Shown: positions 6,036 through 45,018 of the stretch, piece after piece
Numbering within the stretch: the stretch's first letter is position 1
Layout: each line of letters begins with the position of its first letter
NCBI GenBank assembly: GCA_038249605.1
Contig: JBBSDH010000001.1
Coordinates: 1 to 48,727, forward strand
DNA length: 48,727 nt
Direction: 5' to 3'
Source of the DNA: Chitinophagales bacterium
Lineage (GTDB): Bacteria > Bacteroidota > Bacteroidia > Chitinophagales > Saprospiraceae
Notes under the pieces: generated by a model
What the model was told of the DNA's origin: nothing
Seen by the model: the letters and a program-made list of their open reading frames with translations, nothing else
The model's database searches: none
Program-made: the position numbers and the translations under genes

Positions 6036-6161
6036 ATTAGCGGGCAGCGGACTTGAATAAAAATCTGACATTCTTAATTGAACAGCCTCATTCCTTTTTT
6101 TGCTGCCTGCTGCCAGCTGGTTGCTCATCCATAAAAATACTGCCTCCTGCCTGCTTAAGAC

Positions 6162-6169
6162 TATCTTTG
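6162..6169 (+). promoter_or_regulatory. -7 promoter box TATCTTTG
   Basis: Matches TAnnTTTG only 5 nt before ATG 6175. This would imply a leaderless or very short-leader mRNA, or else a chance match. Confidence 0.25.
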
Positions 6170-6174
6170 TTGCG

Positions 6175-8370
6175 ATGTTGTTCGAGAATTTCCCTTTTTA
6201 CAAACAGCACGACGCTTCGGACTGTGGTGTTTCCTGTCTGCGCATGGTTGCGCGGAGTTACGGGCGACATTATTCTCTTGAGTATTTGCGTGAAACGGCA
6301 TACCTCGACCGTGAGGGTGTGTCGTTGATGGGCATATCCGATGCTGCCGAAAAAATAGGCATGCGGTCGCTGGGGGTAAAGGTGGGATTTGGCAGGATGA
6401 AAAAAGACATTCCCTTGCCTTGCATCGCACACTGGCGGCAAAACCACTTTGTGGTGGTGTACCGCATTGCCAACAACAAAGTGTACATAGCCGACCCTGC
6501 GGTGGGCAAATTGCGACTTTCCGAACAACAATTCCTTGAAGGCTGGATCAGCGACGTGGTGAATGCCGAACCACAGGGCATCTTGTTGCTGCTGGAAACG
6601 ATGCCTGAGTTTTACAACCGCGACGGTGAAAAAACCGATCGGGCAGGGTTCAACTTCCTGTGGTCTTATGTGGCCCGGTACAAACGCCTTTTGTGGCAGT
6701 TGTTTTTTGGTTTGCTGCTTGGCAGCGCCATCCAATTGGTGTTCCCATTTTTGATGCAGGCATTGGTGGACAAAGGCGTTCAGCTCGGCGACCTCAATTT
6801 TGTTTACCTCATTCTTGGCGCTCAGGCCATGCTTTTTTTGAGCCAGGTTGCCGTGGAATTCATTCGGGGATGGATCCTGTTGCACATCGGGGCGCGGATC
6901 AACATCAATTTGGTGTCGGACTTCCTCATCAAGCTCATGCGCCTGCCCATGGCGTTTTTTGATACCAAAATGACGGGCGATTTGTTGCAACGCATTTACG
7001 ACAACGAACGTGTGGAGCGTTTCCTCACGTCCAATTCGCTGATTACGCTGTTTTCCATCGTCAACCTTGTCGTTTTCGGCATCGTCCTGCTTTTTTACAA
7101 CATCCTCATTTTTGCCATCTACTTTTTGGCCGCAGGCCTTTATTTCGGTTGGATCGCTTTGTTCATGCAACGCCGACGTGTGCTCGACAACCGCAGGTTT
7201 GAACAAATGGCCGAAAACCAGAACACCCTAATACAACTCGTAAACGGCATGCAGGAGATCAAACTGCACAATGCCGAACGCCAGAAACGCTGGGCCTGGG
7301 AACGTATACAAGCCAAACTGTTCCGCATCAACGAAAGTTACCTGGCCACCGACCAGCGGCAACGCGCGGGCGCCGCATTCATCAACGAAGCCAAAAACAT
7401 CGTCATTTCGGTCATCGCGGCTAAAGCCGTCATCCAGGGCGACATGACCCTCGGCATGATGCTCGCCGTTCAATACATGATCGGACACATGAACGGTCCG
7501 CTCGAGTCCCTTGTGCAATTCATGCTCGCCGCCCAGGAAGCCAAGATCAGTCTGGAACGCATGAACGAGATCCACCAAAAGCCCGACGAAGAGCCTTCCG
7601 ATTACCCCAAAGTGAATGTTTTGCCTTCAACCGGCGACATGGTGTTTGATAAGCTGTGGTTCCGCTACGGTGGTCCGCACGACCCCTGGGTTTTGAAAAA
7701 CGTAAACGTAGCCTTTCAGGAGGGCAAAACCACGGCCATTGTGGGCACCAGTGGCAGTGGAAAAACCACCATGTTGAAACTGATGCTGAACTTTTACCAG
7801 CCCAACGAAGGTGCCATACGGCTTGGTGATTTGAATTTGGCCAACATCCAAAACAAACTTTGGCGGGAAAACTGCGGTGTGGTGATGCAGGATGGCTTTG
7901 TTTTTTCCGACACCATTGCGCGCAACATTACGCTGGGTGAAGATTACATCGACCGCCGCAGGCTGTTGTACGCCGCCAAAGTAGCCAACATCCAAACTTT
8001 CATCGAATCGTTGCCGCTGGGATACAATACCAAAGTTGGCGCTGAAGGCGTGGGCCTGAGCCAGGGGCAACAACAACGCCTGCTCATCGCAAGGGCGGTG
8101 TATAAAAACCCGGAGTACATCTTTTTCGACGAGGCAACCAATGCCCTCGACGCCTACAACGAACGCGTGATCATGCACAACCTGCAACACGCCTTCCGCA
8201 ACAAAACCGTCATAATAGTTGCACACAGGCTCAGTACGGTGCGCAACGCCGACAACATCATCGTGATAGAAAAAGGCGAAGTGGTGGAACAAGGCAGCCA
8301 TGAGGAGCTGACATTCAAACAAGGCGCTTATTACCATTTGGTCAAAAATCAACTCGAACTCGGCCTGTGA
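6175..8370 (+). CDS. Peptidase C39 domain-containing ABC transporter (bacteriocin/GG-leader peptide exporter type)
   Basis: The N-terminal C39 signature is KQHDASDCGVSCLRMV..HFVVVY. It is followed by a 6-TM ABC membrane domain, Walker A GTSGSGKTT, signature LSQGQQQR and Walker B IFFDEATNALD. The start was trimmed to ATG 6175. Confidence 0.9.
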   Translation: MLFENFPFYKQHDASDCGVSCLRMVARSYGRHYSLEYLRETAYLDREGVSLMGISDAAEKIGMRSLGVKVGFGRMKKDIPLPCIAHWRQNHFVVVYRIANNKVYIADPAVGKLRLSEQQFLEGWISDVVNAEPQGILLLLETMPEFYNRDGEKTDRAGFNFLWSYVARYKRLLWQLFFGLLLGSAIQLVFPFLMQALVDKGVQLGDLNFVYLILGAQAMLFLSQVAVEFIRGWILLHIGARININLVSDFLIKLMRLPMAFFDTKMTGDLLQRIYDNERVERFLTSNSLITLFSIVNLVVFGIVLLFYNILIFAIYFLAAGLYFGWIALFMQRRRVLDNRRFEQMAENQNTLIQLVNGMQEIKLHNAERQKRWAWERIQAKLFRINESYLATDQRQRAGAAFINEAKNIVISVIAAKAVIQGDMTLGMMLAVQYMIGHMNGPLESLVQFMLAAQEAKISLERMNEIHQKPDEEPSDYPKVNVLPSTGDMVFDKLWFRYGGPHDPWVLKNVNVAFQEGKTTAIVGTSGSGKTTMLKLMLNFYQPNEGAIRLGDLNLANIQNKLWRENCGVVMQDGFVFSDTIARNITLGEDYIDRRRLLYAAKVANIQTFIESLPLGYNTKVGAEGVGLSQGQQQRLLIARAVYKNPEYIFFDEATNALDAYNERVIMHNLQHAFRNKTVIIVAHRLSTVRNADNIIVIEKGEVVEQGSHEELTFKQGAYYHLVKNQLELGL

Positions 8371-9695
8371 ACCCAACCATCGATAAAGGCGACAGCAAGG
8401 AAGAACGCGAATACGTTGAGCTGCGCTCCGAAGAAGTACACGAAATCCTGGGTACGCCCCCCGGATGGATGGTGCGTTGGGGTACCATGAGTGTGTTGCT
8501 GTGTTTCATCCTGCTGGTTCTGGTGGGCAGCGCCGTGCGTTACCCCGATGTGATCCCTGCAAAAATTGTGCTCACCACCGCCACGCCTCCCGTGGATGTG
8601 GTAGCCCGCACCAACGGCCATTTGTCGGAACTGCTCGTAAAAGACACCCAGGTGGTGAAACGCAACCAATTGCTGGCCGTTTTGCAAAGTACCGCCGATT
8701 ACGAAGATGTTTTGATGTTGGATGCCCTCGCCATGAGTTGGTCGATGCTCAGCAACACAGATACCTTTGTGCGCATCAAGGCACCTGCAAACCTTGATCT
8801 GGGTGAAGTGCAGAGTGAATACGCCGATTTTGTTCAAAAACTCGATCAATTCAAATTTGGTCAAACCGACAAATCAGCCTCCATCGGCGCCAACGTGAGC
8901 AGCAACAACGCCCAGATCAAAAAACTGGAAAGCAGCATCGTTTTCGACCGCAATGCGCTGTTGCGTACCCGCGACCAGCTTGAGTCGGCCCGTGATTATT
9001 TGCGCAAGCAACAAGAGCTTTTTAATGCAGGCATCATATCTAGGGTGGAACTTGAAAAAGAAAAACAACGTGTTGCCGACCTGGAGCGTCAGATCGAGCA
9101 GTTGGACGATAACATCCTGCGCAAACAAAACGAGATTTTGAGCTTGCGCAAAAACAGCAGTGAAGCGACCTTCAGCGGCAGTGAGAGTAGCAACACTGCC
9201 GAGGCACAACTGCTCAACAGCCTGAATACTTTGCGTGGGAGCATCGACCGCTGGAAACAAAGTTTTCTGTTGCGCGCTCCCATCGAAGGCCGTGTGTCGC
9301 TCAATTCTTCCTTTTACAGCTCGCAGCAATACATCCGCGACGGCGACCAGTTGCTGGCCATTGTGCCTCTTAAAACCGATTCGATCATTGGGCGTGTTAC
9401 GCTTCCGGTTTCCGGAAGCGGCAAAGTTTCGCAGGGACAAAAAGTGATCATCAAGCTCGACAGTTATCCATTTTACGAGTTCGGATCGCTCACTGGAACC
9501 GTTCGCGCCAAATCGCTGGTACCCAAAGACAATGCCTATTTGATTTTTGTAGACCTGCCTAAAGCGCTCGTCACCAACCACAACAGGGTCATTGAGTTTG
9601 AACAGCAGCTGCAGGGCACTGCTGAAATCATCACCAACGACAAGAGCTTTTTGCGCCGGATTTCCGAGCAAATGTTCGCCGGATGGACCAATTGA
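8367..9695 (+). CDS. HlyD-family secretion (membrane fusion) protein
   Basis: A GTG start overlaps the ABC stop (GTGA). The N-terminus LRSEEVHEILGTPPGWMVRWG plus a TM helix is followed by a long coiled-coil and a C-terminal beta-barrel region, as is typical of MFPs paired with C39 exporters. Confidence 0.85.
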   Translation: MNPTIDKGDSKEEREYVELRSEEVHEILGTPPGWMVRWGTMSVLLCFILLVLVGSAVRYPDVIPAKIVLTTATPPVDVVARTNGHLSELLVKDTQVVKRNQLLAVLQSTADYEDVLMLDALAMSWSMLSNTDTFVRIKAPANLDLGEVQSEYADFVQKLDQFKFGQTDKSASIGANVSSNNAQIKKLESSIVFDRNALLRTRDQLESARDYLRKQQELFNAGIISRVELEKEKQRVADLERQIEQLDDNILRKQNEILSLRKNSSEATFSGSESSNTAEAQLLNSLNTLRGSIDRWKQSFLLRAPIEGRVSLNSSFYSSQQYIRDGDQLLAIVPLKTDSIIGRVTLPVSGSGKVSQGQKVIIKLDSYPFYEFGSLTGTVRAKSLVPKDNAYLIFVDLPKALVTNHNRVIEFEQQLQGTAEIITNDKSFLRRISEQMFAGWTN

Positions 9696-17222: not shown

Positions 17223-17915
17223 ATGAAGGACAAGGCGCTTCCGAAAAAAATTCTCATCGTCGACGACGAACCGGACATACTGGAGTTCCTCCAGTACAAC
17301 CTTCGCAAGGAAGGCTATACGGTGGTAACCGCCAGCGATGGTAAATTTGCCCTCGAAGTTGCCGAACGCGAAAAACCCAACCTCATCATCCTCGACATCA
17401 TGATGCCCGAGCTTGATGGCGTTGAAACCTGCCGCCAACTGCGCAGCAAAAAAGAGTTCGCCGACACGCCCATCGCTTTCCTGACCGCCCGCGACGAAGA
17501 CTTTTCCCAAATCACTGCCCTGGATGTAGGCGGCGACGACTACATCACCAAACCCATCAAACCCCGCGTACTCATTTCCCGCATCAATGCCCTGCTCCGC
17601 CGCGCCAACCGCGCCAACGCCGATGACCAGGACATCATCCAACTCTCCGACCTCGTTATCGACCGCCAAAAAGTGCTGGTTTTTAAACAGGAGAGACCCA
17701 TCGAATTGCCGCGCAAAGAATTTGAAATCCTGTGGCTGCTTGCCTCCAAACCCGGCCGCGTGTTTACCCGTGAAGAAATTTTTGATAAAATTTGGGGCGC
17801 CGATGTCATCGTCGGTAACCGAACCATCGACGTGCACATCCGTAAACTGCGCGAACGCCTGGGTGAGGAATACATCAAAACGATGAAGGGAATTGGGTAC
17901 AAATTCGAGTTCTAG
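17223..17915 (+). CDS. OmpR/PhoB-family response regulator
   Basis: The receiver domain shows ILIVDDEPDI, LIILDIMMPELDG and KP. The C-terminal winged-helix region shows LPRKEFEILWLL and GIGYKF. Confidence 0.9.
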   Translation: MKDKALPKKILIVDDEPDILEFLQYNLRKEGYTVVTASDGKFALEVAEREKPNLIILDIMMPELDGVETCRQLRSKKEFADTPIAFLTARDEDFSQITALDVGGDDYITKPIKPRVLISRINALLRRANRANADDQDIIQLSDLVIDRQKVLVFKQERPIELPRKEFEILWLLASKPGRVFTREEIFDKIWGADVIVGNRTIDVHIRKLRERLGEEYIKTMKGIGYKFEF

Positions 17916-18965
17916 ATGTTTAAAAATCAGACGCCACAGCAGCTCGCCTTTTACATTGCACTCATAACCTCTTTCGGGCTTAGTTTCATCTTTGCCATTC
18001 TGAAACTTACCGGCATACTTTCCAACCCCTGGTGGGAAGTCGCCCTCATCGGCATCGTGGCTTTCGTCGCCAATTTCATTGCCAATTATTACCTGGTGCG
18101 CTACTACATCTTCCGGCGCATCAAACTTATTTACAAAATCATCCACCGTCACAAACTGCCCGCCGATTTCAAAGCGGGTAAAATCCCGATGAACCAAAAC
18201 ATCCTCGACGATGTGGAACGCGAAGTGGGCAAATGGGCCGAACAACACAACCGCGACCTCGAACAACTCGAACGCCTCGCTACTTACCGCCGCCGTTTCA
18301 TCGGCGATGTGTCGCACGAACTCAAAACGCCCATTTTCAACATCCAGGGTTTTGTACATACCCTGCTTGACGGCGCCATCAACGACCCGGATGTCAACAT
18401 CAAATACCTCAACCGCGCCGCCAAAAACGTGGACCGCCTCCAGGCCATCGTCGAAGACCTGGAAACCATCAACAAACTCGAATCGGGTCAAATGGTGCTT
18501 GACCTGCGCGAGTTCGACGTATATGACCTGGCTCAGGACGTGTATTCTGATCTCGAAATACGCGCCAAAGAACGCAACATCCGCCTAACCTTTAAAGAAG
18601 GCGCCGACCAGCACTTCCGCGTTCGGGCCGACAAGGAAAGCGTCCGCCAGGTGCTCATCAACCTGATACACAATTCCATCAAATACGGCAAAGAAGGCGG
18701 CGTGACCAAACTCAGTTTCTACGACATGGAAAGTTACATGCTCGTGGAAGTGAGCGACAATGGCATCGGCATCGATTCCGAACACCTCAGACACGTGTTC
18801 GACCGCTTCTTTCGCGTGGATAAAAGCCGCTCCCGCGACGCAGGAGGTACAGGCCTGGGGCTGTCCATCGTAAAACACATCATCGAAGCGCACAAACAAA
18901 CGGTGACAGTGCGCAGCACGTCGGGACAAGGTGCGACGTTCGGGTTTACGCTGGAAAAAGCGTGA
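17916..18965 (+). CDS. Sensor histidine kinase (HisKA + HATPase_c)
   Basis: The ATG is directly adjacent to the regulator's TAG stop. Two N-terminal TM helices are present. The H-box is FIGDVSHELKTP, the N-box is LINLIHNSIKY, and the G-boxes are DNGIGI and GTGLGLSIVK. Confidence 0.9.
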   Translation: MFKNQTPQQLAFYIALITSFGLSFIFAILKLTGILSNPWWEVALIGIVAFVANFIANYYLVRYYIFRRIKLIYKIIHRHKLPADFKAGKIPMNQNILDDVEREVGKWAEQHNRDLEQLERLATYRRRFIGDVSHELKTPIFNIQGFVHTLLDGAINDPDVNIKYLNRAAKNVDRLQAIVEDLETINKLESGQMVLDLREFDVYDLAQDVYSDLEIRAKERNIRLTFKEGADQHFRVRADKESVRQVLINLIHNSIKYGKEGGVTKLSFYDMESYMLVEVSDNGIGIDSEHLRHVFDRFFRVDKSRSRDAGGTGLGLSIVKHIIEAHKQTVTVRSTSGQGATFGFTLEKA

Positions 18966-18983: not shown

Positions 18984-20960
18984 TTACTGTCGGACTACCC
19001 GTTCCACTACCCTGCCCCGGCTCGTTTCCACAGCGATAAAATACACGCCGGCTTTTCCTGGCAATTGAACCGGCATCGCGTCGCCTTTTTGATCCACCAC
19101 CATTTTGCCGGAGGCTTCCCATACCTGTACACGGCGTACCGGCAGACCAACAGGGGTTTCTACAAATACCCTTCCGTCGTGCGATAAGGTCGGGTAAACG
19201 CGTACATCCGTTTTCCACGCTGCTTCTTTCGACGACACAGGCGAAACCATCACCGTTTCCAAAATCTGTTCGGAAATGAGGACCGGCGACCGGTCCGACG
19301 CGTTGAACATGGTTTCAAATGCCTGGATTTCAGGCGCCTGGAAAGCAAACATGGGATCCAGCCACTTCAAAGGCAAACTTTGGTACCACACCCGGGCCTC
19401 CACGCGCCAGGCGCCTGTGTAGCCGTTGACTGGAATGGCAAAATGCAACACATCGGCGCCTGTACCTTCTTCGCCCAGGGCATCGCGGTTGAAATCGGGA
19501 TCGGAGAGCGCTTGTCCTGCGATGAGCGTGGTGTCGTAAACCGGGTGGTCCATACGGAAACCTTCGGGCGTGAGGCGGTTGTCCTTGAGCGCATAATGCG
19601 CGCGTTCGAGCACGTTGGTGAATTGTCCGGACACATCGCCGGGCGTGAGCTCGTATATCTGCACCTGATCGGGCCGGTTGATCGTCTGGTAGTGTGGTTC
19701 GTAGTTGGCGTCTTCGTCCACCAGCCTGTACTGCGCGTCCGTTTTCCCGGAATGGAAAAGCGTATCCCCCGAAGCGGACAACACCACGAACTCCACCCAC
19801 GCCCTACGCGCGGGGTAACCACTCGGAAATTTGTGTCCGGCTTTGTTGTGCAGATTCAAACTGAAGTGCGCTGTATCGCCATTGAGCACACCCGTTTCGA
19901 GGGTTAAATCCAGCGATTGTTGTTGCAACATGCGCACAGTGGCCGCTATGGTGCTGTCAAAATGTTCGGGCAAAGCAGAGATGCCGAGATCGGCGCGGTT
20001 GTCGCGCATGAGTTTGAGCATGTGCGTATTGGCGCCGACCATTTCGTGGAGTCCGTAGGGGAATTTGGAAATCAGAAAGGCATAGTTGGAAGAAATGACC
20101 ACCGCGTCGGGGATTTGCGGCAGGTGGCACTTCTGGCAGGTGATGTTGTCCTGGTCCTTGTCGTACCGCGAATTGAGCCACTCGTGGTAAGTGGCCTGTT
20201 CCACAAACGTGTTGCCGGTGTACGTTCCGTTTTCGTCGACTGATTTGGTGATGAGGGTATGGCAACCTGCGCACAAACCTGCGTCGGAAATGTGCTCGCC
20301 GTATTTGGGTGTGATGCCCACAAACTCGTGCATGGGCGGCGCGAACACCGTTTCGTATGGACCGTATGCGACACGGATGTAGTTGGTATCAAAATTCAAA
20401 GCACCGGAGTGCAGGCTGCCGTTGGGTCCGGGCGCCTGGGCGTGGCAGGCCTGGCAGTTCACGCCGTCGAGGCCGAGCGTATCGGCGTAAAGATCTGCGA
20501 GCGTGTAAAACTCGGCGTGGTTTTTCAATTTGGCCTGGTAATGTCCTGTGGGTGCGTGGCACGACGTGCATTTGTCCTGAAGCTCGATGCTGTGCGCCGG
20601 GTTCACCAGCATTTCGTGGCGCACTTTGGCGCGCCAGAACGGGTCTTTGGCGCTGTTGGCCATCATGCTGGAGCGCCAGTCGTCGTACACGTTCACGTCG
20701 GTTCCGTTGCTGGTCACCATGGCCATGCCGTTCGGGTCTTTGCCGTGGCAGCCGCTGCACAGTTTGGCGTTGGGGAAAAGGATGCTCGAATCGATGGGCA
20801 TGAATTCACCGCTGCCGTGTGGGTTGAACGCCAGTTTGGTTCGGTAAAACGCGAGCTCTTCTTCCGAGTGGAAATTGGAAGGTTTGTTGTCCCAGGGAAA
20901 CCAGGCGAGAAAGGCGATGAGGGCGGGAAGCGCGAGTACGGGGAGGAGCGATTTTTTCAT
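18984..20960 (-). CDS. Multihaem (5 x CxxCH) c-type cytochrome with a T9SS C-terminal sorting domain
   Basis: A signal peptide is present. CxxCH motifs lie at aa 68-72 (CSGCH), 131-135 (CTSCH), 169-173 (CQACH), 230-234 (CAGCH) and 275-279 (CQKCH). The last ~75 aa (VRVYPTLSHDGRVFVE..GVYFIAVETSRGRVVERVVRQ) look like a Por/T9SS type-A C-terminal domain. Confidence 0.75.
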   Translation of the reverse strand: MKKSLLPVLALPALIAFLAWFPWDNKPSNFHSEEELAFYRTKLAFNPHGSGEFMPIDSSILFPNAKLCSGCHGKDPNGMAMVTSNGTDVNVYDDWRSSMMANSAKDPFWRAKVRHEMLVNPAHSIELQDKCTSCHAPTGHYQAKLKNHAEFYTLADLYADTLGLDGVNCQACHAQAPGPNGSLHSGALNFDTNYIRVAYGPYETVFAPPMHEFVGITPKYGEHISDAGLCAGCHTLITKSVDENGTYTGNTFVEQATYHEWLNSRYDKDQDNITCQKCHLPQIPDAVVISSNYAFLISKFPYGLHEMVGANTHMLKLMRDNRADLGISALPEHFDSTIAATVRMLQQQSLDLTLETGVLNGDTAHFSLNLHNKAGHKFPSGYPARRAWVEFVVLSASGDTLFHSGKTDAQYRLVDEDANYEPHYQTINRPDQVQIYELTPGDVSGQFTNVLERAHYALKDNRLTPEGFRMDHPVYDTTLIAGQALSDPDFNRDALGEEGTGADVLHFAIPVNGYTGAWRVEARVWYQSLPLKWLDPMFAFQAPEIQAFETMFNASDRSPVLISEQILETVMVSPVSSKEAAWKTDVRVYPTLSHDGRVFVETPVGLPVRRVQVWEASGKMVVDQKGDAMPVQLPGKAGVYFIAVETSRGRVVERVVRQ

Positions 20961-21202
20961 GCAATGAGTCCTTTTTTATTAGGACTGCCAAAGATAGTGG
21001 AATCATTTTTTTTCAATAAACTCCTTAAACCCTTTCCGGTAAGTGTCGTTAATCGGCAAAAGTTTTTTTCCGATCTGCACTTTTTTCCTTGTGGATGCTG
21101 TGCACCCAATTGATGCCATTGAGGTAAGAATGGTGGATGCATGCAAACTGATTTGCAGGCAAAATACGCTTCGACAAACAACCGCGGATTTAAACGGATT
21201 TT

Positions 21203-22624
21203 TTAAAACCTTACAATCTTCCCCTTCATTTTTCCTTCCAGATACGACCTGATGATCCGACCTGCATCCGGATCTTTATAGGGCGACGATACACGTTCAC
21301 GGAGGTCTTCAACTTGAAAACCTTCTTCTTCGGTTTCCGCATACCCGAACCCCAGAAACTGTCCTTCTTCCACCAACACCAGGGCTTTTTCGCCCTGTGT
21401 TCGGCCGAGCTCGTGGTACAGGAAATTACCGGTGAGTGCGCGGGATAGCACTTTCATGGCTTCCCCCACCCTGGCGTTGTACTCCTCCGCACTTTCTTCC
21501 CCCACACAGGCGCCCCGGCATTGTTTGATGCTGTGATGGAAACAAGCGCGTTCGTGAAAATCGAGGTGGCAAAGGCGGTGGCAAAGTTCATACTGGCGCA
21601 CGATGCTGGCCAGGTAGCCACGCGCACTTTCCAGTTTGGGCAATTCGATGAGTGTGGTTAAACCCGGCGACGCTTTTTTGCCTGGTTTGCCAGCTACGAG
21701 GCATTGGTACCCCAGCTGATCGGTGTAGGTGTAAATGCCTGCATTGTACTGGCGCATGCGCAACGCCCGGTTGATGCGCGGTTGCAGGCGTTTGATCTCG
21801 GCGCTTTCGAGCAGCAAGGCCACAAGTTCGCTGCCGGTCACTTCGCAGGAAATATCGGCTGCTCCGGCGCGCATTTTTTCGCCTTTCGGTGTGTGATCGG
21901 CGAAGTGTTCGTACAGTCGTTTGCGTATGTTCAAACTTTTCCCCACATAAATAACGTCGCCTTCCTGGTCGTGCAGGTAATACACGCCACAGGCTTCGGG
22001 CAGGGCGTCGAGTTTATCGATGGTGATACCGGGCGGCAGTTTCGACTCTTTCAACCCTGCACGCATGAGGCTTTTGATGCTGCTTGCGCCGCCTTCCTGT
22101 TCGGCCAGGATGTGTTCGAAAAGGCGCACAGTAGCGAGGGTATCGTCAAGCGCACGGTGGCTGCGGGCGGCGGCAATGCCAAAATGGTTTTTCAGGTTGC
22201 TGAGGCTGTAACTCGGCAGACCAGGAAACACCTTGCGTGCCAGTCGTACCGTACAGAGTTGCTGGCGGGTGTATTGGTAACCAAGTCGGGCAAATTCCTC
22301 GCGGATGAAACCAAAATCGAAGGTAACGTTGTGTGCCACGAAGATGGCGTTCTCCGTCATTTCCACAATTTTGCGCGCCACTTCAAAAAACTTCGGTGCG
22401 GTGGCCACCATGTCGTCGGTGATGCCGGTGAGTTGCGTGATGTTCCAGGGTATACTGCGTTCGGGGTTGATGAGCGTACTGTACGTATCAATCACCTTTT
22501 CGCCGTCGTGCAAAACGATGGCGATTTCGGTCACACGTTCAAAACGGGCGGACCCTCCGGTGGTTTCTACGTCGATGATGGCAAATTTAGACAACGGCTG
22601 TGTGGTAGCAGGTTTGATTAACAA
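21203..22624 (-). CDS. DnaQ-like 3'-5' exonuclease fused to a GIY-YIG nuclease domain (Cho/UvrC-N-like)
   Basis: Exo motifs are FAIIDVETTG and HNVTFDFGF, then H..DD. GIY-YIG follows: GVYYLHDQEGDVIYVGKSLNIRKR. Only a TTG start at 22624 keeps the ExoI motif in frame, so the start is uncertain. Confidence 0.8.
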   Translation of the reverse strand: MLIKPATTQPLSKFAIIDVETTGGSARFERVTEIAIVLHDGEKVIDTYSTLINPERSIPWNITQLTGITDDMVATAPKFFEVARKIVEMTENAIFVAHNVTFDFGFIREEFARLGYQYTRQQLCTVRLARKVFPGLPSYSLSNLKNHFGIAAARSHRALDDTLATVRLFEHILAEQEGGASSIKSLMRAGLKESKLPPGITIDKLDALPEACGVYYLHDQEGDVIYVGKSLNIRKRLYEHFADHTPKGEKMRAGAADISCEVTGSELVALLLESAEIKRLQPRINRALRMRQYNAGIYTYTDQLGYQCLVAGKPGKKASPGLTTLIELPKLESARGYLASIVRQYELCHRLCHLDFHERACFHHSIKQCRGACVGEESAEEYNARVGEAMKVLSRALTGNFLYHELGRTQGEKALVLVEEGQFLGFGYAETEEEGFQVEDLRERVSSPYKDPDAGRIIRSYLEGKMKGKIVRF

Positions 22625-24417: not shown

Positions 24418-26280
24418 ATGAAACACTGCTACTGGCTGCTTTTGCTGCTGCTTGGAACCGTTTGCGCCCAGGCGCAAAACATCAATACCACCTTCCGGTC
24501 CAAACTTGTGTACCCGGGCCAAACCCTCGCGAACATATGGGGATACGTCGGCGCAGATGGTAGCGAATACGCCTTGCTCGGCGGTTCGCTGGGACTCATC
24601 ATCGTCAATGTGACCAACCCCGACAACCCGCAAGCAATCACGCAGATCCCCGGGCCCAACAGCCTGTGGAAAGAAATCAAAACCTACGGCAATTACGCCT
24701 ACGTGGTGTCGGAAGGCGGCCAAGGCATTCAGATTTTCAACCTTTCCGGACTTCCATCCGCCACCGTGCCCAGCAAATTTTACACCGGCGACGGCGCGGT
24801 AGCAGGGCAAATGAACCGCATCCACGCCTTGCACATCGACACGGCACAAGGCTACCTTTACGCCTACGGCGGCAATATTTTTTCCGGCGGCGCCAAAATA
24901 TTCAACCTCAATCCAGATCCCTGGAACCCTACTTACGCCGGTAAATTCGACCAGCTCGGTTACATCCATGACGGGTATGTGAACAACGACACTTTGTACA
25001 GCGGGCACATCTACTTAGGGCAGTTCGCCATCGTAGACATGACCGACAAAAGCAATCCGCAACTCCTGGCCACCCAAACCACACCCGGCGCCTTTACCCA
25101 CAACACCTGGCCTACCAACGACAGTAAAACCATCCTGTCCACCGACGAAGTGAACAACTCAGTTTTGGCGGCATACGACGTAAGCGACCCTACCGACATC
25201 AAGGAACTCGACCGCATACAGAGCAATCCGGGCAGCAACTCCGTAGTGCACAACACGCACATTCAAGGCGATTTTGCCATAACGTCGTGGTACAAAGATG
25301 GTTTCACCATTGTAGATCTCAGCCGTCCGCACAACCTCATCCAAACCGGCAACCACGATACTTACGTAGGCACGGGTGGAACCGGCAGCGGCTTCAACGG
25401 CTGCTGGGGCGTGTACCCGCATTTCCCATCCGGCAACATCATGGCCACCAACATCAGCGCACCTGGCTCCAACAACAATGGTGAACTGTGGATCGTGACA
25501 CCCAACTATGTGAAAGGTTGTTACCTCGAAGGACAAGTGCGCGACGCCGCAACGCTGCTTCCCATCACCGGCGCAACCATCGCCGTGCCCGGCATACCAC
25601 TTTTGGGTGCAACCAGCGGTCCCGACGGCCGTTTTGCATCCGGACAAGTAACGGAAGCCGTGGTGGATGTAAACATAACCAAGTCAGGATACCAGGATGC
25701 TCATTTCACCACATCCCTCGAAAATGGCGTTCTGCGTTACCTGGATGTGTTGATGTTTTCTGAGGGCAGTCTGAACATTACCGGTGTGGTGTTGCGCGAC
25801 GGCAAATTCGGGCCCAAACCTGTAGCCGACGCCACAGTGTACCTCTACGGCGTTGAGCTGGAATACAGTGCTTTGACCGATGCTTTCGGCAACTTCCTTT
25901 TCCCCGACGTGTCGCCCGGTTATTACGACCTTGTGGCTTCCAAAGACCCAACCGGCATGGCCATCATGTACAACCAGATTTTGGTTAAAGACAGCACTTT
26001 TACCCTGCTTTTACAACCCAACCACAAACGTAACGGAAGCCCCGGCACCTCCGTTGCTCCCAATCCCTTCTCTTCCGAAACCGTGCTTACTGTAGATTTG
26101 CCGGAGGCCGGTTATGCAGCGCGTTTGACTGATCTTTTGGGTCGAGAAGTGATGCGTTTTGAAGTTCAGGAAAAAAACAGCCATATTGTTTTTGGCAGCG
26201 AGTTGCGACCAGGTATGTATTGGCTTCATCTGGAAAAAAACGGCGCTTCCGAACCACCCGTATCGATCATCAAGCATTAA
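24418..26280 (+). CDS. Choice-of-anchor-B / LVIVD-repeat surface protein with carboxypeptidase-regulatory-like domains and a T9SS C-terminal domain
   Basis: A signal peptide is present. Family-like segments are NIWGYVGADGSEYALLG..GLIIVNVTNPDNP and WKEIKTYGNYAYVVSE..GIQIF. Two CarboxypepD_reg-like segments follow. The tail is APNPFSSETVLTVDL..GMYWLHLEKNG. Confidence 0.7.
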   Translation: MKHCYWLLLLLLGTVCAQAQNINTTFRSKLVYPGQTLANIWGYVGADGSEYALLGGSLGLIIVNVTNPDNPQAITQIPGPNSLWKEIKTYGNYAYVVSEGGQGIQIFNLSGLPSATVPSKFYTGDGAVAGQMNRIHALHIDTAQGYLYAYGGNIFSGGAKIFNLNPDPWNPTYAGKFDQLGYIHDGYVNNDTLYSGHIYLGQFAIVDMTDKSNPQLLATQTTPGAFTHNTWPTNDSKTILSTDEVNNSVLAAYDVSDPTDIKELDRIQSNPGSNSVVHNTHIQGDFAITSWYKDGFTIVDLSRPHNLIQTGNHDTYVGTGGTGSGFNGCWGVYPHFPSGNIMATNISAPGSNNNGELWIVTPNYVKGCYLEGQVRDAATLLPITGATIAVPGIPLLGATSGPDGRFASGQVTEAVVDVNITKSGYQDAHFTTSLENGVLRYLDVLMFSEGSLNITGVVLRDGKFGPKPVADATVYLYGVELEYSALTDAFGNFLFPDVSPGYYDLVASKDPTGMAIMYNQILVKDSTFTLLLQPNHKRNGSPGTSVAPNPFSSETVLTVDLPEAGYAARLTDLLGREVMRFEVQEKNSHIVFGSELRPGMYWLHLEKNGASEPPVSIIKH

Positions 26281-42834: not shown

Positions 42835-45018
42835 ATGAAACCTTTTTTCCTATTTCTCTTTCTTCCCCTCCACCTTTGGTCTCAATCTTTTACCCCTAAA
42901 GACATTGCCCGTTGGGAAAAACAAGCGCAAAACGTCACCGTCATCCGTGACAACTGGGGCATCCCGCACATTTACGGCAAAACCGACGCCGATGCTGTGT
43001 TTGGACTTTTGTACGCCCAATGCGAAGACGATTTCAAACGCGTGGAGATGAATTATGTGGAAAAGCTGGGCCGTTTGGCGGAAGTACAAGGAAAAGACAT
43101 GGTGTACAAAGACCTGCTCATACGCATGATCATCGATGCCGATGATGCAAAAAAGGACTACGACAAAGCGCCGGCGTGGTTGAAAAAACTGTGCAACGCT
43201 TTTGCCGACGGGGTAAATTATTACCTGTATACCCACCCCGATGTCAAACCGGCCCTACTCACACGTTTCGAGCCCTGGCACCCGTTTTTGTGGACCGACG
43301 GCAGCATAGGCGCCATCAGCACGGCCGATTTGACCGTAAACGAACTGAAAAGTTTTTATTCTGGAGCACCATCAACGTCGGCAGTTCCGGGGTTGGATGC
43401 CGATGAAAAATCCACCGGTTCGAACGGTTTTGCTTTTGCACCGAAAATTTCAGCGTCGGGCAAAGCCATGTTGTACATCAATCCGCACGTCACGTTTTAT
43501 TTCCGACCGGAGGTACACATGGTGAGCGAGGAGGGTTTGAACGTGTACGGAGCAGTTACGTGGGGACAGTTTTTCATTTACCAGGGTTTCAACGAGCATT
43601 GCGGCTGGATGCACACCAGCAGCGCCGTTGACGCCGCCGATACGTACATTGAAAAAGTTTCCAAAAAAGGTGATCAATGGGTGTATCAGTACGATGGTAA
43701 AGAAAAACCCGTGGTTTCCAAAAAGATCACGCTTTTGGCGAAAACCACCTCTGGTTTCGATACCACCCACATCAACGCTTTGTACACCCACCACGGCCCC
43801 ATCATGGCCAAACTCAACGGGCAGTGGCTGAGCCTGCGGGCCGACAACCGCATCACCAACGGCATCATCCAGTGCTGGCAACGCAACAAAGCCAAAGGAC
43901 TCGACGATTTCCAAAAAACACTCGACCTGAAAGGCAACATTTCCAACAACACCGTGTACGCCGATGCTTCCGGAAACATCGCCTACTGGCACGGGAACAG
44001 GATTCCTAGGCGGGATGTCAAATACGACTGGAGCAAAGCGGTAGACGGCACTACCACCGCCACCGAATGGCAGGGATACCACAATGTGTCGGAAACCGTA
44101 CACTGCATCAATCCGTCCAACGGCTGGTTGCAAAACTGTAACTCGACGCCATTTACCGTTGCAGGAGCGAATAGTCCGAAAAAAGCCGGATACCCCGACT
44201 ACATGGCGCCCGATGGCGAAAATTTTCGGGGCATCAACGCCGCCAGATTGCTCAACGAAAAATCCAGTTACACAATGGATGACGTCATCCTCGCCGGTTA
44301 CGACACCCGGATGGCGGCGTTTGAAATCCTTGTTCCGGCCCTTGTTTTGGCATTCAACCAGGTACCCTACGAAGATTCCTTGTTTGCCTTGCTGGCCGGT
44401 CCTGTCGCTGTTTTACAACGTTGGGATTATCGATGTGGAGAAAAATCCTTAGCCACAACGCTTGCTGTGGAGTGGGGACAACGCCTGTTGCCCGACATTG
44501 CCAAAACCGCCTTACCCCGCACGGAAAAGGGCGATTGGGTCCAAAAAACACAACTTTTTGCGGAGCGTGCATCGCCCAAAGCCTTGTTGTTGCCTTTGCT
44601 GGTCACCATCCGCGATCTGGAAAACAAATACGGCCGCTGGCAAATACCCTGGGGCGAAGTGAACCGTTTTCAAAGGATTTCATCCGACATCCAAAACCAA
44701 TTTGACGACAAGCAACCCAGCATACCCATAGCCTATACCGGCGGCAATTGGGGCACGCTTCCCAGCTATTACAGCAGCACGTTTCCCGATACGAAAAAAC
44801 GCTACGGCGAACACGGCAACAGTTTTGTTTGTGTGGTTGAATTTGGTGAAAAAGTAAAAGCCAAATCGTTGCTCGCCGGCGGGCAAAGCGGCGACGAAAG
44901 CTCGAAACATTTTTTCGATCAGGGAGAAATGTACCGCAAAGGACAGTTCAAAGATGTGTTGTTTTACCGGGAAGATGTGGTGAAAAATGCGAAGCGGACG
45001 TATAAACCGGGGAAGTGA
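42835..45018 (+). CDS. Penicillin acylase family (Ntn-hydrolase; AHL-acylase-like) protein
   Basis: A signal peptide is present. Family blocks are IIRDNWGIPHIYG and LYAQCEDDF. The predicted autoproteolytic site exposes the Ser nucleophile (GSNGFAFAP). The C-terminal block is GGQSGDESSKHFFDQ. Confidence 0.9.
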   Translation: MKPFFLFLFLPLHLWSQSFTPKDIARWEKQAQNVTVIRDNWGIPHIYGKTDADAVFGLLYAQCEDDFKRVEMNYVEKLGRLAEVQGKDMVYKDLLIRMIIDADDAKKDYDKAPAWLKKLCNAFADGVNYYLYTHPDVKPALLTRFEPWHPFLWTDGSIGAISTADLTVNELKSFYSGAPSTSAVPGLDADEKSTGSNGFAFAPKISASGKAMLYINPHVTFYFRPEVHMVSEEGLNVYGAVTWGQFFIYQGFNEHCGWMHTSSAVDAADTYIEKVSKKGDQWVYQYDGKEKPVVSKKITLLAKTTSGFDTTHINALYTHHGPIMAKLNGQWLSLRADNRITNGIIQCWQRNKAKGLDDFQKTLDLKGNISNNTVYADASGNIAYWHGNRIPRRDVKYDWSKAVDGTTTATEWQGYHNVSETVHCINPSNGWLQNCNSTPFTVAGANSPKKAGYPDYMAPDGENFRGINAARLLNEKSSYTMDDVILAGYDTRMAAFEILVPALVLAFNQVPYEDSLFALLAGPVAVLQRWDYRCGEKSLATTLAVEWGQRLLPDIAKTALPRTEKGDWVQKTQLFAERASPKALLLPLLVTIRDLENKYGRWQIPWGEVNRFQRISSDIQNQFDDKQPSIPIAYTGGNWGTLPSYYSSTFPDTKKRYGEHGNSFVCVVEFGEKVKAKSLLAGGQSGDESSKHFFDQGEMYRKGQFKDVLFYREDVVKNAKRTYKPGK

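Follow-up and report, generated by a model that had tools for sequence, protein, structure and literature searches.

How a cytochrome with five haems might come to work outside a Bacteroidota cell, and what it would do there, is the question raised by a gene at 18,984 to 20,960 of a 48.7-kb stretch of DNA from a Chitinophagales bacterium (contig JBBSDH010000001.1); this whole stretch is called the window below. The initial annotation had read the gene as coding for a Sec-exported pentahaem c-type cytochrome that ends in a C-terminal sorting domain (CTD) of the type IX secretion system (T9SS), and had proposed an analogy with the mineral-respiring Mtr/Omc systems; the former part of this interpretation stood, whereas the latter found no specific support. 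Our analysis favors a T9SS-exported extracellular pentahaem electron-transfer protein, a reading to which we give a probability of roughly 0.55. The gene and the elements that identify its product as a cytochrome are the following.

18984-20960, minus strand: whole gene, pentahaem c-type cytochrome precursor with a T9SS type-A CTD (658 aa, ATG start, stop codon at 18984-18986).
20904-20960, minus strand: Sec signal peptide, aa 1-19, MKKSLLPVLALPALIAFLA (predicted cleavage after Ala19, read by eye).
20745-20759, minus strand: haem motif 1, CSGCH, aa 68-72.
20556-20570, minus strand: haem motif 2, CTSCH, aa 131-135 (counterpart of the active-site haem 2 of MccSep; PMC13510729).
20442-20456, minus strand: haem motif 3, CQACH, aa 169-173.
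20259-20273, minus strand: haem motif 4, CAGCH, aa 230-234.
20124-20138, minus strand: haem motif 5, CQKCH, aa 275-279.

The open reading frame (ORF) and its five CxxCH motifs (starting at aa 68, 131, 169, 230, and 275) lie exactly where they had been placed. All 10 cysteines of the 658-aa protein fall within these motifs, and 20,000 composition-preserving shuffles of the sequence gave three or more CxxCH in no case, two in a single case and one in 97. No other ORF of the window contains a CxxCH anywhere. Pfam Cytochrome_C7 matches the protein with 31.2 bits against a cut-off of 24.8. The initial annotation had staked its reading on the conservation of the motifs in orthologues, and there they are invariant: exactly five CxxCH are present in 120 of 120 close homologues, and in an alignment of diverse representatives the ten motif cysteines and five motif histidines are conserved in at least 119 of the 120 rows. 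The predicted Sec signal peptide was also borne out. The N-terminus consists of MKK and about 16 hydrophobic residues, and the consensus of 40 homologues, MKKxxLLALxVPAxxGALA/FFPxEN (the slash marks the cut), contains an AXA-type signal-peptidase I site, read by eye, with Ala19 and Pro22 nearly invariant. Conserved CxxCH motifs and the export signal together confirm, as far as the sequence goes, that the window protein is a multihaem c-type cytochrome.

Export beyond the periplasm depends on the C-terminus, for which the window holds two relevant features.

18987-19205, minus strand: T9SS type-A C-terminal sorting domain of the cytochrome, aa 586-658, about 73 aa (TIGR04183, hhalign, AlphaFold2, Foldseek).
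24418-26280, plus strand: second T9SS type-A cargo, a choice-of-anchor B protein with LVIVD repeats (TIGR04183, 26.2 bits against 23; TIGR04312, 191.7 bits).

TIGR04183 aligns with aa 588-658 of the cytochrome over model positions 1-72 of 72, at 17.3 bits (E-value = 0.0035), which is below the curated cut-off of 23 bits. The type-A domain that had been assigned by eye is therefore sub-threshold in the window copy, while it passes at the level of the family, as 69 of 72 close relatives match the model at E ≤ 0.01 (best E-value = 4e-8). So do 40 of 68 more distant relatives with a C- or N-terminal extension (best E-value = 3e-11), and many relatives exceed the cut-off, the best being P0121 with 34.3 bits. 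In every full-length close relative the domain forms the very C-terminus, and its signature positions, YP(T/N), GxY, and the KVV(R/K) end, are conserved in homologues, including P590, G596, G618, P634, and Y640. A profile built from the final 79 residues of the family was compared by hhalign with the tails of unrelated T9SS cargo, namely the FG-GAP proteins of related loci and the second cargo of the window, and the two aligned with 97.3% probability over 76 columns (E-value = 2e-11), pairing YPTLS with FPNP, GVYF with GIY and the KVVR ends with each other. The AlphaFold2 (AF2) model folds aa 587-657 into a seven-strand beta-sandwich, with a predicted local distance difference test (pLDDT) score of 88-96, for which Foldseek returned HBP35 (5y1a), the RgpB CTD (5ag8) and NucA in a T9SS complex (8glk_D, TMt 0.77, rmsd 2.1). 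No T9SS machinery genes were identified within the window. T9SS is the rule in the phylum Bacteroidota, and the second cargo, with a predicted sorting domain of its own, suggests that the host uses this route. That cargo is a 620-aa protein which also has CarboxypepD_reg domains and is encoded 3.5 kb from the cytochrome gene. Since the relatives match TIGR04183, the tails align with those of unrelated cargo, the model is a beta-sandwich and a second cargo lies in the same window, we regard the assignment of the last ~73 aa as a T9SS type-A sorting domain as solid.

Between the signal peptide and the CTD lies a core of two domains.

19926-20783, minus strand: alpha-helical haem domain with the five CxxCH, aa ~60-345 (AF2 pLDDT mostly >90, Foldseek match to 5ze8, hhalign to ExtKL).
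19236-19925, minus strand: immunoglobulin (Ig)-like beta-sandwich "stem" with insertions, aa ~346-575 (AF2 pLDDT 89-98, hhalign to the ExtKL C-terminal domain).

A first AF2 model, built from 72 sequences of 60-66% identity, was poor in the haem domain (pLDDT 66, and <50 over most of aa 45-309). After the addition of 108 distant relatives lacking the CTD (ma09cd0671951), pLDDT rose to 90.2 with a predicted TM-score (pTM) of 0.81, the N-terminal half being helical and the C-terminal half rich in beta-strands. Foldseek placed PDB 5ze8, cytochrome c552 of Thermochromatium tepidum, at the top and as the only multihaem match (E-value = 3.9e-12, probability 1.00, TMt 0.64, 554 columns); the poor first model had already pointed to the same structure. 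Sequence searches of the PDB with phmmer and hmmsearch, using the protein, the family profile and the beta domain (E ≤ 1, in one run ≤ 10), retrieved neither 5ze8 nor MccSep and yielded chance-level and weak CTD matches only. Pfam and NCBIfam gave generic cytochrome matches on the core and a short, local match to NF040886 (ExtKL) at aa 363-406, with 20.5 bits against a cut-off of 250. MccSep/ExtKL (GSU2937-2936) is a periplasmic homotetrameric polysulfide reductase of Geobacter sulfurreducens, in which a five-haem helical cap sits on an Ig-like stem, and the stem inserts a loop toward haem 2; this haem is His/Cys-ligated through C239, and the selenocysteine Sec325 lies in the D-G-U-P loop of the stem (Sci Adv 2026, PMC13510729).

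Sequences of ExtKL were sought by a DNA pattern, designed from the guess that an N-x-x-x-G-H-x-x-P motif lies just upstream of D-G-U-P. The 38-nt degenerate pattern for N-x3-G-H-x2-P-D-G-U(TGA)-P found 54 metagenome contigs (L001-L054), 35 of which carry a selenoprotein gene with an in-frame UGA and four or five CxxCH (all five in 34). Two of the recovered selenoproteins scored 464 and 418 bits on NF040886 and are thus genuine ExtKL/MccSep, and the loop N-x-x-A-G-H-R-(I/V/L)-P-D-G-U-P-S was present in 10 of 10 recovered sequences inspected. Profile-profile comparison of the window family with ExtKL by hhalign reached a probability of 94.6% with a shallow alignment and 98.2% with a deep one (E-value = 2.9e-14); in greedy mode it reached 98.7% (E-value = 1.9e-16) over 362 columns, with the five haem motifs in identical order. 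Because of this profile match with all haem motifs in order, the core (aa ~60-575) is a genuine, distant homologue of MccSep/ExtKL, and a common ancestor of the core, MccSep/ExtKL and the Thermochromatium c552 is the best explanation of these data. The non-haem region of ~300 aa between haem motif 5 and the CTD, which had been recorded without a fold, turns out to be the Ig-like stem of this superfamily. A c552 homologue, PtdA, is likewise described, in a second paper, as a pentahaem protein that has a beta-sandwich at its C-terminus.

Homology of the fold does not extend to the chemistry of MccSep, as can be read from three conserved segments.

19812-19838, minus strand: GHKFPSGYP loop, aa 375-383, aligned with ExtKL AGHR(I/V)PDGUP, with Tyr382 at the selenocysteine position.
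20178-20201, minus strand: EQATYHEW block, aa 254-261, at the site of the ExtKL P-x-Q-C-A motif, without Cys.
19557-19586, minus strand: KDNRLTPEGF motif, aa 459-468, shared with the RDTxLQP motif of ExtKL.

In the hhalign comparison NKAGHKFPSGY382P of the family aligned with NxxAGHRIPDGUP of ExtKL. Among 120 diverse sequences of the broad family, G375, H376, and P379 are invariant, K377 is present in 116 and P383 in 119, and position 382 is Y in 63, F in 32, I in 20 and H in four, and never Cys. The EQATYHEW block keeps E254, Q255, and E260 in 120 of the 120 and W261 in 117; the cysteine which ligates haem 2 in ExtKL is, within V-E-Q-A-T, replaced by Gln255 in one hhalign run, and in the other falls in a two-residue insertion that is absent here. 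In the third segment D460, R462, and P465 are invariant, with K459 in 117 and G467 in 118 sequences. Membership of MccSep/ExtKL itself was rejected, as the NF040886 score, the selenocysteine at 382 and the haem-2 cysteine all fail, while the architecture is shared. Since the haem-ligating cysteine is absent and a tyrosine stands at the selenocysteine position, the window protein, to judge by these residues, cannot reduce polysulfide in the way MccSep does.

Several residues were considered as substitutes. His259 as a replacement ligand of haem 2 was rejected as a family feature, being Leu in 58 and His in 26 sequences of the broad family. Tyr382 is unlikely to be catalytic, given Y, F or I at this position across the family. 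A switch from His to Met ligands (ExtKL "SHHA" against "SMMA" here, by eye) is ambiguous, as hhalign puts a gap there. Three invariant histidines (H305, H376, and H423) and two near-invariant methionines (M100 and M210) could provide one distal ligand for each haem; five conserved candidates for five haems would leave no open catalytic site, which is a counting argument only. The conserved positions of the broad family further include W95, D106-P107, E116, M100 (115 of 120), M210, E254-Q255, E260-W261, H305, G309, N311, G375-H376-K377, P379, P383, R385, H423, K459-D460-x-R462, P465, G467, D487, and D503, in addition to the five CxxCH.

The family is widespread. A word-indexed search returned more than 2,681 relatives, and the best 120 (60-66% identity, one of 92%; 650-700 aa) come from metagenome-assembled genomes (MAGs) of Saprospiraceae and Lewinellaceae. 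An exact search for the window protein itself in the assembly collection gave no record. A profile search of 1.84 billion cluster representatives (clusters at 50% identity) found 3,759 clusters at E ≤ 0.001, 2,119 at 1e-10 and 848 at 1e-30. The two peptides EQATYHEW and GHKFPSGY, sought in one genome per GTDB species, are present in at least 595 confirmed species genomes; the best 80 of these matches are all Bacteroidota, from Saprospiraceae, Lewinellaceae, Phaeodactylibacter, and some Flavobacteriales and Weeksellaceae. Two sources disagree on the origin of one CTD-bearing cytochrome sequence (P0103, MBC7777142.1), the first giving "Phycisphaerae bacterium" and the second "Saprospiraceae bacterium", probably as a result of a MAG binning error. 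Some relatives have been named automatically as "T9SS type A sorting domain-containing protein" or "multiheme c-type cytochrome".

At least 7,069 further relatives (E ≤ 1e-10) lack the CTD and terminate exactly at the end of the window protein's core. By their source names they belong to Planctomycetota, Chloroflexota, Acidobacteriota, Aquificota and "Deltaproteobacteria". A lipobox is present in 64 of 113 relatives from other phyla and in none of 119 sequences of the CTD clade. Other relatives bear a PEP-CTERM-like tail (P0196), a GlyGly-CTERM-like tail (P0212) or extra domains, namely dockerin and DUF642 (P0232), Calx-beta (P0261), PKD/Big_9 (P0267) and He_PIG (P0193). Judging from their domain content, these lipoboxes, tails and extra domains appear to be independent devices for display on or outside the envelope. 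In P0184, P0196, and P0356 the pentahaem-Ig module is preceded, within the same chain, by an N-terminal pyrroloquinoline quinone (PQQ) glucose/sorbosone dehydrogenase propeller, and such fusions would be a multihaem type of quinohaemoprotein. Since a dehydrogenase of this kind needs an electron acceptor, the fusions suggest that the pentahaem-Ig module can serve as acceptor or relay. P0196 also carries a discoidin (F5/8 type C) domain.

The surroundings of the gene were then compared among the window, four Bacteroidota genomes, 80 related loci and three CTD-less relatives. Three features flank the window copy.

17223-17915, plus strand: OmpR-type response regulator (Pfam), convergent to the cytochrome gene.
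17916-18965, plus strand: HisKA/HATPase kinase (Pfam), convergent to the cytochrome gene.
20989-20996, minus strand: promoter motif TATCTTTG, 36-29 nt upstream of the ATG, fitting the Bacteroidota -7 consensus TAnnTTTG (sequence scan).

The convergent two-component system that had been described is thus an OmpR-type regulator with a HisKA kinase. The pair adjoins the cytochrome gene in relatives of 92 and 65% identity (the latter from Lewinellaceae), and is absent beside it in two Saprospiraceae genomes. As TATCTTTG fits TAnnTTTG, the -7 consensus of Bacteroidetes sigma-A promoters, the cytochrome gene may have a promoter of its own. Other neighbors in the window are a TonB_C-TPR protein, NamZ, the choice-of-anchor B cargo and DapB; the earlier statement that no respiratory genes are adjacent holds, no other cytochrome or respiratory gene being found nearby. 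ORF clustering of the 80 related loci showed a sole recurrent neighbor, a T9SS cargo of ~945 aa with FG-GAP/VCBS repeats and its own CTD, in 18 loci. In most cases this gene (L096-L136, e.g., L096 8112-10937, minus strand) comes directly after the cytochrome gene and converges on it; the loci belong to a subclade of ~50% identity, and the presence of the gene reflects either functional linkage or clade synteny. The three CTD-less relatives (one from Novipirellula of the Planctomycetota, one from Chloroflexota, and a third) share no neighbors. In none of the loci compared is the cytochrome gene linked to a porin, a periplasmic multihaem protein or a quinol dehydrogenase, and it is typically solitary.

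Some other genes of the window deserve mention. Upstream of the cytochrome gene by 243 bp and on the same strand, 21203-22624 (minus strand) encodes a 473-aa fusion of a DnaQ-like RNase_T exonuclease and a GIY-YIG domain; the gene recurs in the loci of the two closest relatives, there ~8 kb upstream of the cytochrome gene. At 6100-8370 (plus strand) there is a peptidase-containing ATP-binding cassette (ABC) transporter of the bacteriocin/NHLP export type (TIGR03796, 448 bits, below the equivalog cut-off), overlapped by a 442-aa ORF at 8367-9695 (plus strand), and 6100-9695 may be a peptide-export locus. The 727-aa product of 42835-45018 (plus strand) weakly resembles PvdQ, an acylase of the Ntn-hydrolase type (81.6 bits, a long way under the cut-off), and may be an acyl-homoserine-lactone or penicillin acylase-like enzyme.

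From these observations a course of events can be proposed for the extracellular electron-transfer protein that we favor. The precursor would be exported by Sec and its signal peptide cut after Ala19. Five haems would be attached covalently at the five CxxCH in the periplasm, where the protein would fold into the helical haem cap (aa ~60-345) and the Ig-like stem (aa ~346-575). T9SS would then recognize the 73-aa type-A CTD, move the folded, haem-loaded protein over the outer membrane and remove the tag, and the cytochrome would end up either anchored at the surface or released. There, a short branched chain of five close-packed haems could pass electrons between extracellular donors and acceptors, candidate partners being secreted dehydrogenases and redox enzymes of other kinds, oxidants in dissolved or solid form, and other secreted cytochromes. 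The loading with haem, the secretion, the position on the surface, the set of ligands and the physiological partners are all predictions; the extracellular location would follow from established T9SS biology together with the surface and extracellular modules of the relatives in other phyla.

Some points weigh against this proposal. The window CTD remains below the TIGR04183 cut-off, and Pfam PF18962 gave no report on it. An extracellular cytochrome needs an electron source or sink, and no conduit or partner lies nearby in the genomes examined. The conserved polar residues E254, Q255, E260, K377, R385, K459, D460, R462, D487, and D503 would fit an enzyme active site as well. Finally, our searches of the open literature yielded no paper on a c-type cytochrome as T9SS cargo: none was found that mentions T9SS or type IX secretion together with multihaem or CXXCH, and the listed papers naming both T9SS and c-type cytochrome are unrelated as far as their titles and abstracts tell. 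Transport of a pentahaem protein by T9SS therefore has no reported precedent in the open literature searched.

The explanation that survives best beside the electron carrier assumes the same export and makes the protein a self-contained extracellular enzyme, a serious alternative to which we nevertheless give a rather low likelihood. Haem 2, lacking the Cys ligand, would convert some small, diffusible substrate (peroxide, for instance, or a species of sulfur, nitrogen or metal) in a pocket lined by E254, Q255, E260 and the GHK-P...Y/F-P-x-RR loop, and the other four haems would store or relay electrons. What keeps it in play is that MccSep forms its active site exactly where these conserved polar residues lie. 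MccSep, the closest characterized homologue, is itself an enzyme whose active site is formed by the same two sequence elements (PMC13510729), and outside the haem motifs nothing in the family is better conserved from phylum to phylum; a gene that stands alone in every phylum sampled is also what would be expected of an enzyme without a dedicated partner. An electron relay is favored nonetheless, because position 382 is merely hydrophobic (Y, F or I), resembling packing rather than chemistry, because the number of candidate distal ligands equals that of the haems, so that an open coordination site need not exist, and because the PQQ dehydrogenase fusions point to the role of an electron acceptor.

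Less probable still, and in our view unlikely, is a terminal reductase of anaerobic extracellular respiration, seated on the cell surface and analogous to MtrC/OmcA, which would act on Fe(III)/Mn(IV) minerals or electrodes and receive its electrons via an outer-membrane conduit encoded elsewhere in the genome. A surface-sorting tag on a multihaem cytochrome is in keeping with it, as is a weak local similarity to MtrC (PF22113, 24.7 bits; 7o7g, E-value = 0.03). Yet PF22113 stays below its threshold of 30, the similarity is limited to the spacing around CxxCH motifs, and the PDB match to MtrC spans one CxxCH pair only, on which grounds an MtrC-like assignment was rejected; TIGR03507 scored 11.5 bits against a cut-off of 209. 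The analogy drawn by the initial annotation thus finds no specific support, the gene being a stand-alone one without a conduit partner, and the porin, periplasmic multihaem protein and quinol dehydrogenase that such respiration would call for are not linked to it in the loci examined. Moreover, Saprospiraceae and Lewinellaceae live mainly as aerobic heterotrophs, and Novipirellula, host to a CTD-less relative, is likewise an aerobe. In favor of mineral respiration stand the superfamily members ExtKL and PtdA, whose genes adjoin porins in porin-cytochrome-like clusters (PMC13510729), and the many secreted multihaem cytochromes predicted in Saprospiraceae, for which extracellular electron transfer has been speculated (PMC11495043); against it, MccSep was formerly assumed to be on the outer surface and was found to be periplasmic (PMC13510729).

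That the CTD is a decayed or repurposed Ig-like domain and the cytochrome stays in the periplasm is very improbable: the 17.3 bits of the window copy and the periplasmic location of both characterized relatives, MccSep and c552 (PMC13510729), would suit it, while the retention of the domain at the extreme C-terminus of all full-length close relatives, often above threshold (34.3 bits in P0121), its conserved signature positions, its full-length profile alignment to functional-type CTDs of other cargo and the mutual exclusion of CTD and lipobox, as expected of alternative anchoring devices, all speak against it.

A bolder version of the extracellular electron-transfer reading can be put forward tentatively, and we hold it to be doubtful. 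T9SS would export fully haem-loaded multihaem cytochromes, and nearly all Saprospiraceae and Lewinellaceae would have the pentahaem protein as a redox hub outside the cell, allowing extracellular electron transfer in largely aerobic Bacteroidota without a porin-cytochrome conduit by wiring secreted dehydrogenases, oxidative polymer-degrading enzymes or giant secreted multihaem proteins to extracellular acceptors. A 2024 survey of MAGs from activated sludge predicted a large number of secreted multihaem cytochromes, above all in Saprospiraceae, and speculated that these might take part in extracellular electron transfer or act as capacitors; it did not deal with T9SS or any export mechanism, nor did it mention the pentahaem family (PMC11495043). 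Labels as T9SS cargo or as multihaem cytochrome were already given by annotation pipelines, and what is new is the combination of T9SS cargo with a widespread sister family of MccSep that is devoid of its selenocysteine and Cys. Should the predicted export hold, the range of T9SS would include a protein bearing five covalently bound haems, and redox chemistry would take place outside Saprospiraceae and Lewinellaceae, which are abundant polymer degraders of activated sludge and aquatic habitats. A very large unnamed sister family of MccSep is defined, in which the selenocysteine/Cys chemistry has been lost and which has been joined, in various phyla, to various surface-display devices and to PQQ dehydrogenases. 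As the clade peptides EQATYHEW and GHKFPSGY occur in so many species genomes (at least 595), the clade can be tracked in genomes and its export tested in cultured relatives.

Compared with known systems, the window protein resembles the T9SS type-A cargo RgpB, HBP35, and NucA in its beta-sandwich CTD of ~73 aa, extreme C-terminal and with the type-A signature positions, as well as in its plain Sec signal peptide without a lipobox; it differs in being a multihaem cytochrome, while hydrolases, adhesins and motility proteins make up most of the known cargo. With MtrC, OmcA, and MtrF of Shewanella it shares the multihaem c-type nature, the expected position on the outer face of a diderm cell and a weak similarity around two CxxCH. 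Those proteins have ten haems instead of five and a different fold, and MtrC and OmcA are lipoproteins exported by the type II route and docked on MtrAB, whereas the window protein is T9SS-tagged and has no conduit genes nearby. Quinohaemoprotein-type fusions and the cytochrome domains of secreted dehydrogenases are matched by the fusions P0184, P0196, and P0356 of the family, which have the typical arrangement of a built-in acceptor; the window protein itself is unfused, with no candidate partner nearby, so that the functional analogy is drawn by inference. The low-potential c552 of T. tepidum (5ze8) also has five haems and is the best structural match, but with 385 aa against a core of ~515 aa it is smaller, soluble, periplasmic and without a sorting domain, and shows no sequence similarity detectable by phmmer or hmmsearch. 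Closest of all is MccSep/ExtKL (NF040886), with five CxxCH in the same order, a helical haem cap followed by an Ig-like stem, the loop N-x-x-A-G-H-(K/R)-x-P-x-G-X-P and the motif (K/R)-D-(N/T)-x-L-x-P in common. The core of the window protein is ~110 aa longer, with insertions in both domains, and bears a T9SS sorting domain where MccSep is a periplasmic homotetramer; MccSep is found mainly in Desulfobacterota and Nitrospirota, whereas the CTD-bearing clade belongs to Bacteroidota.

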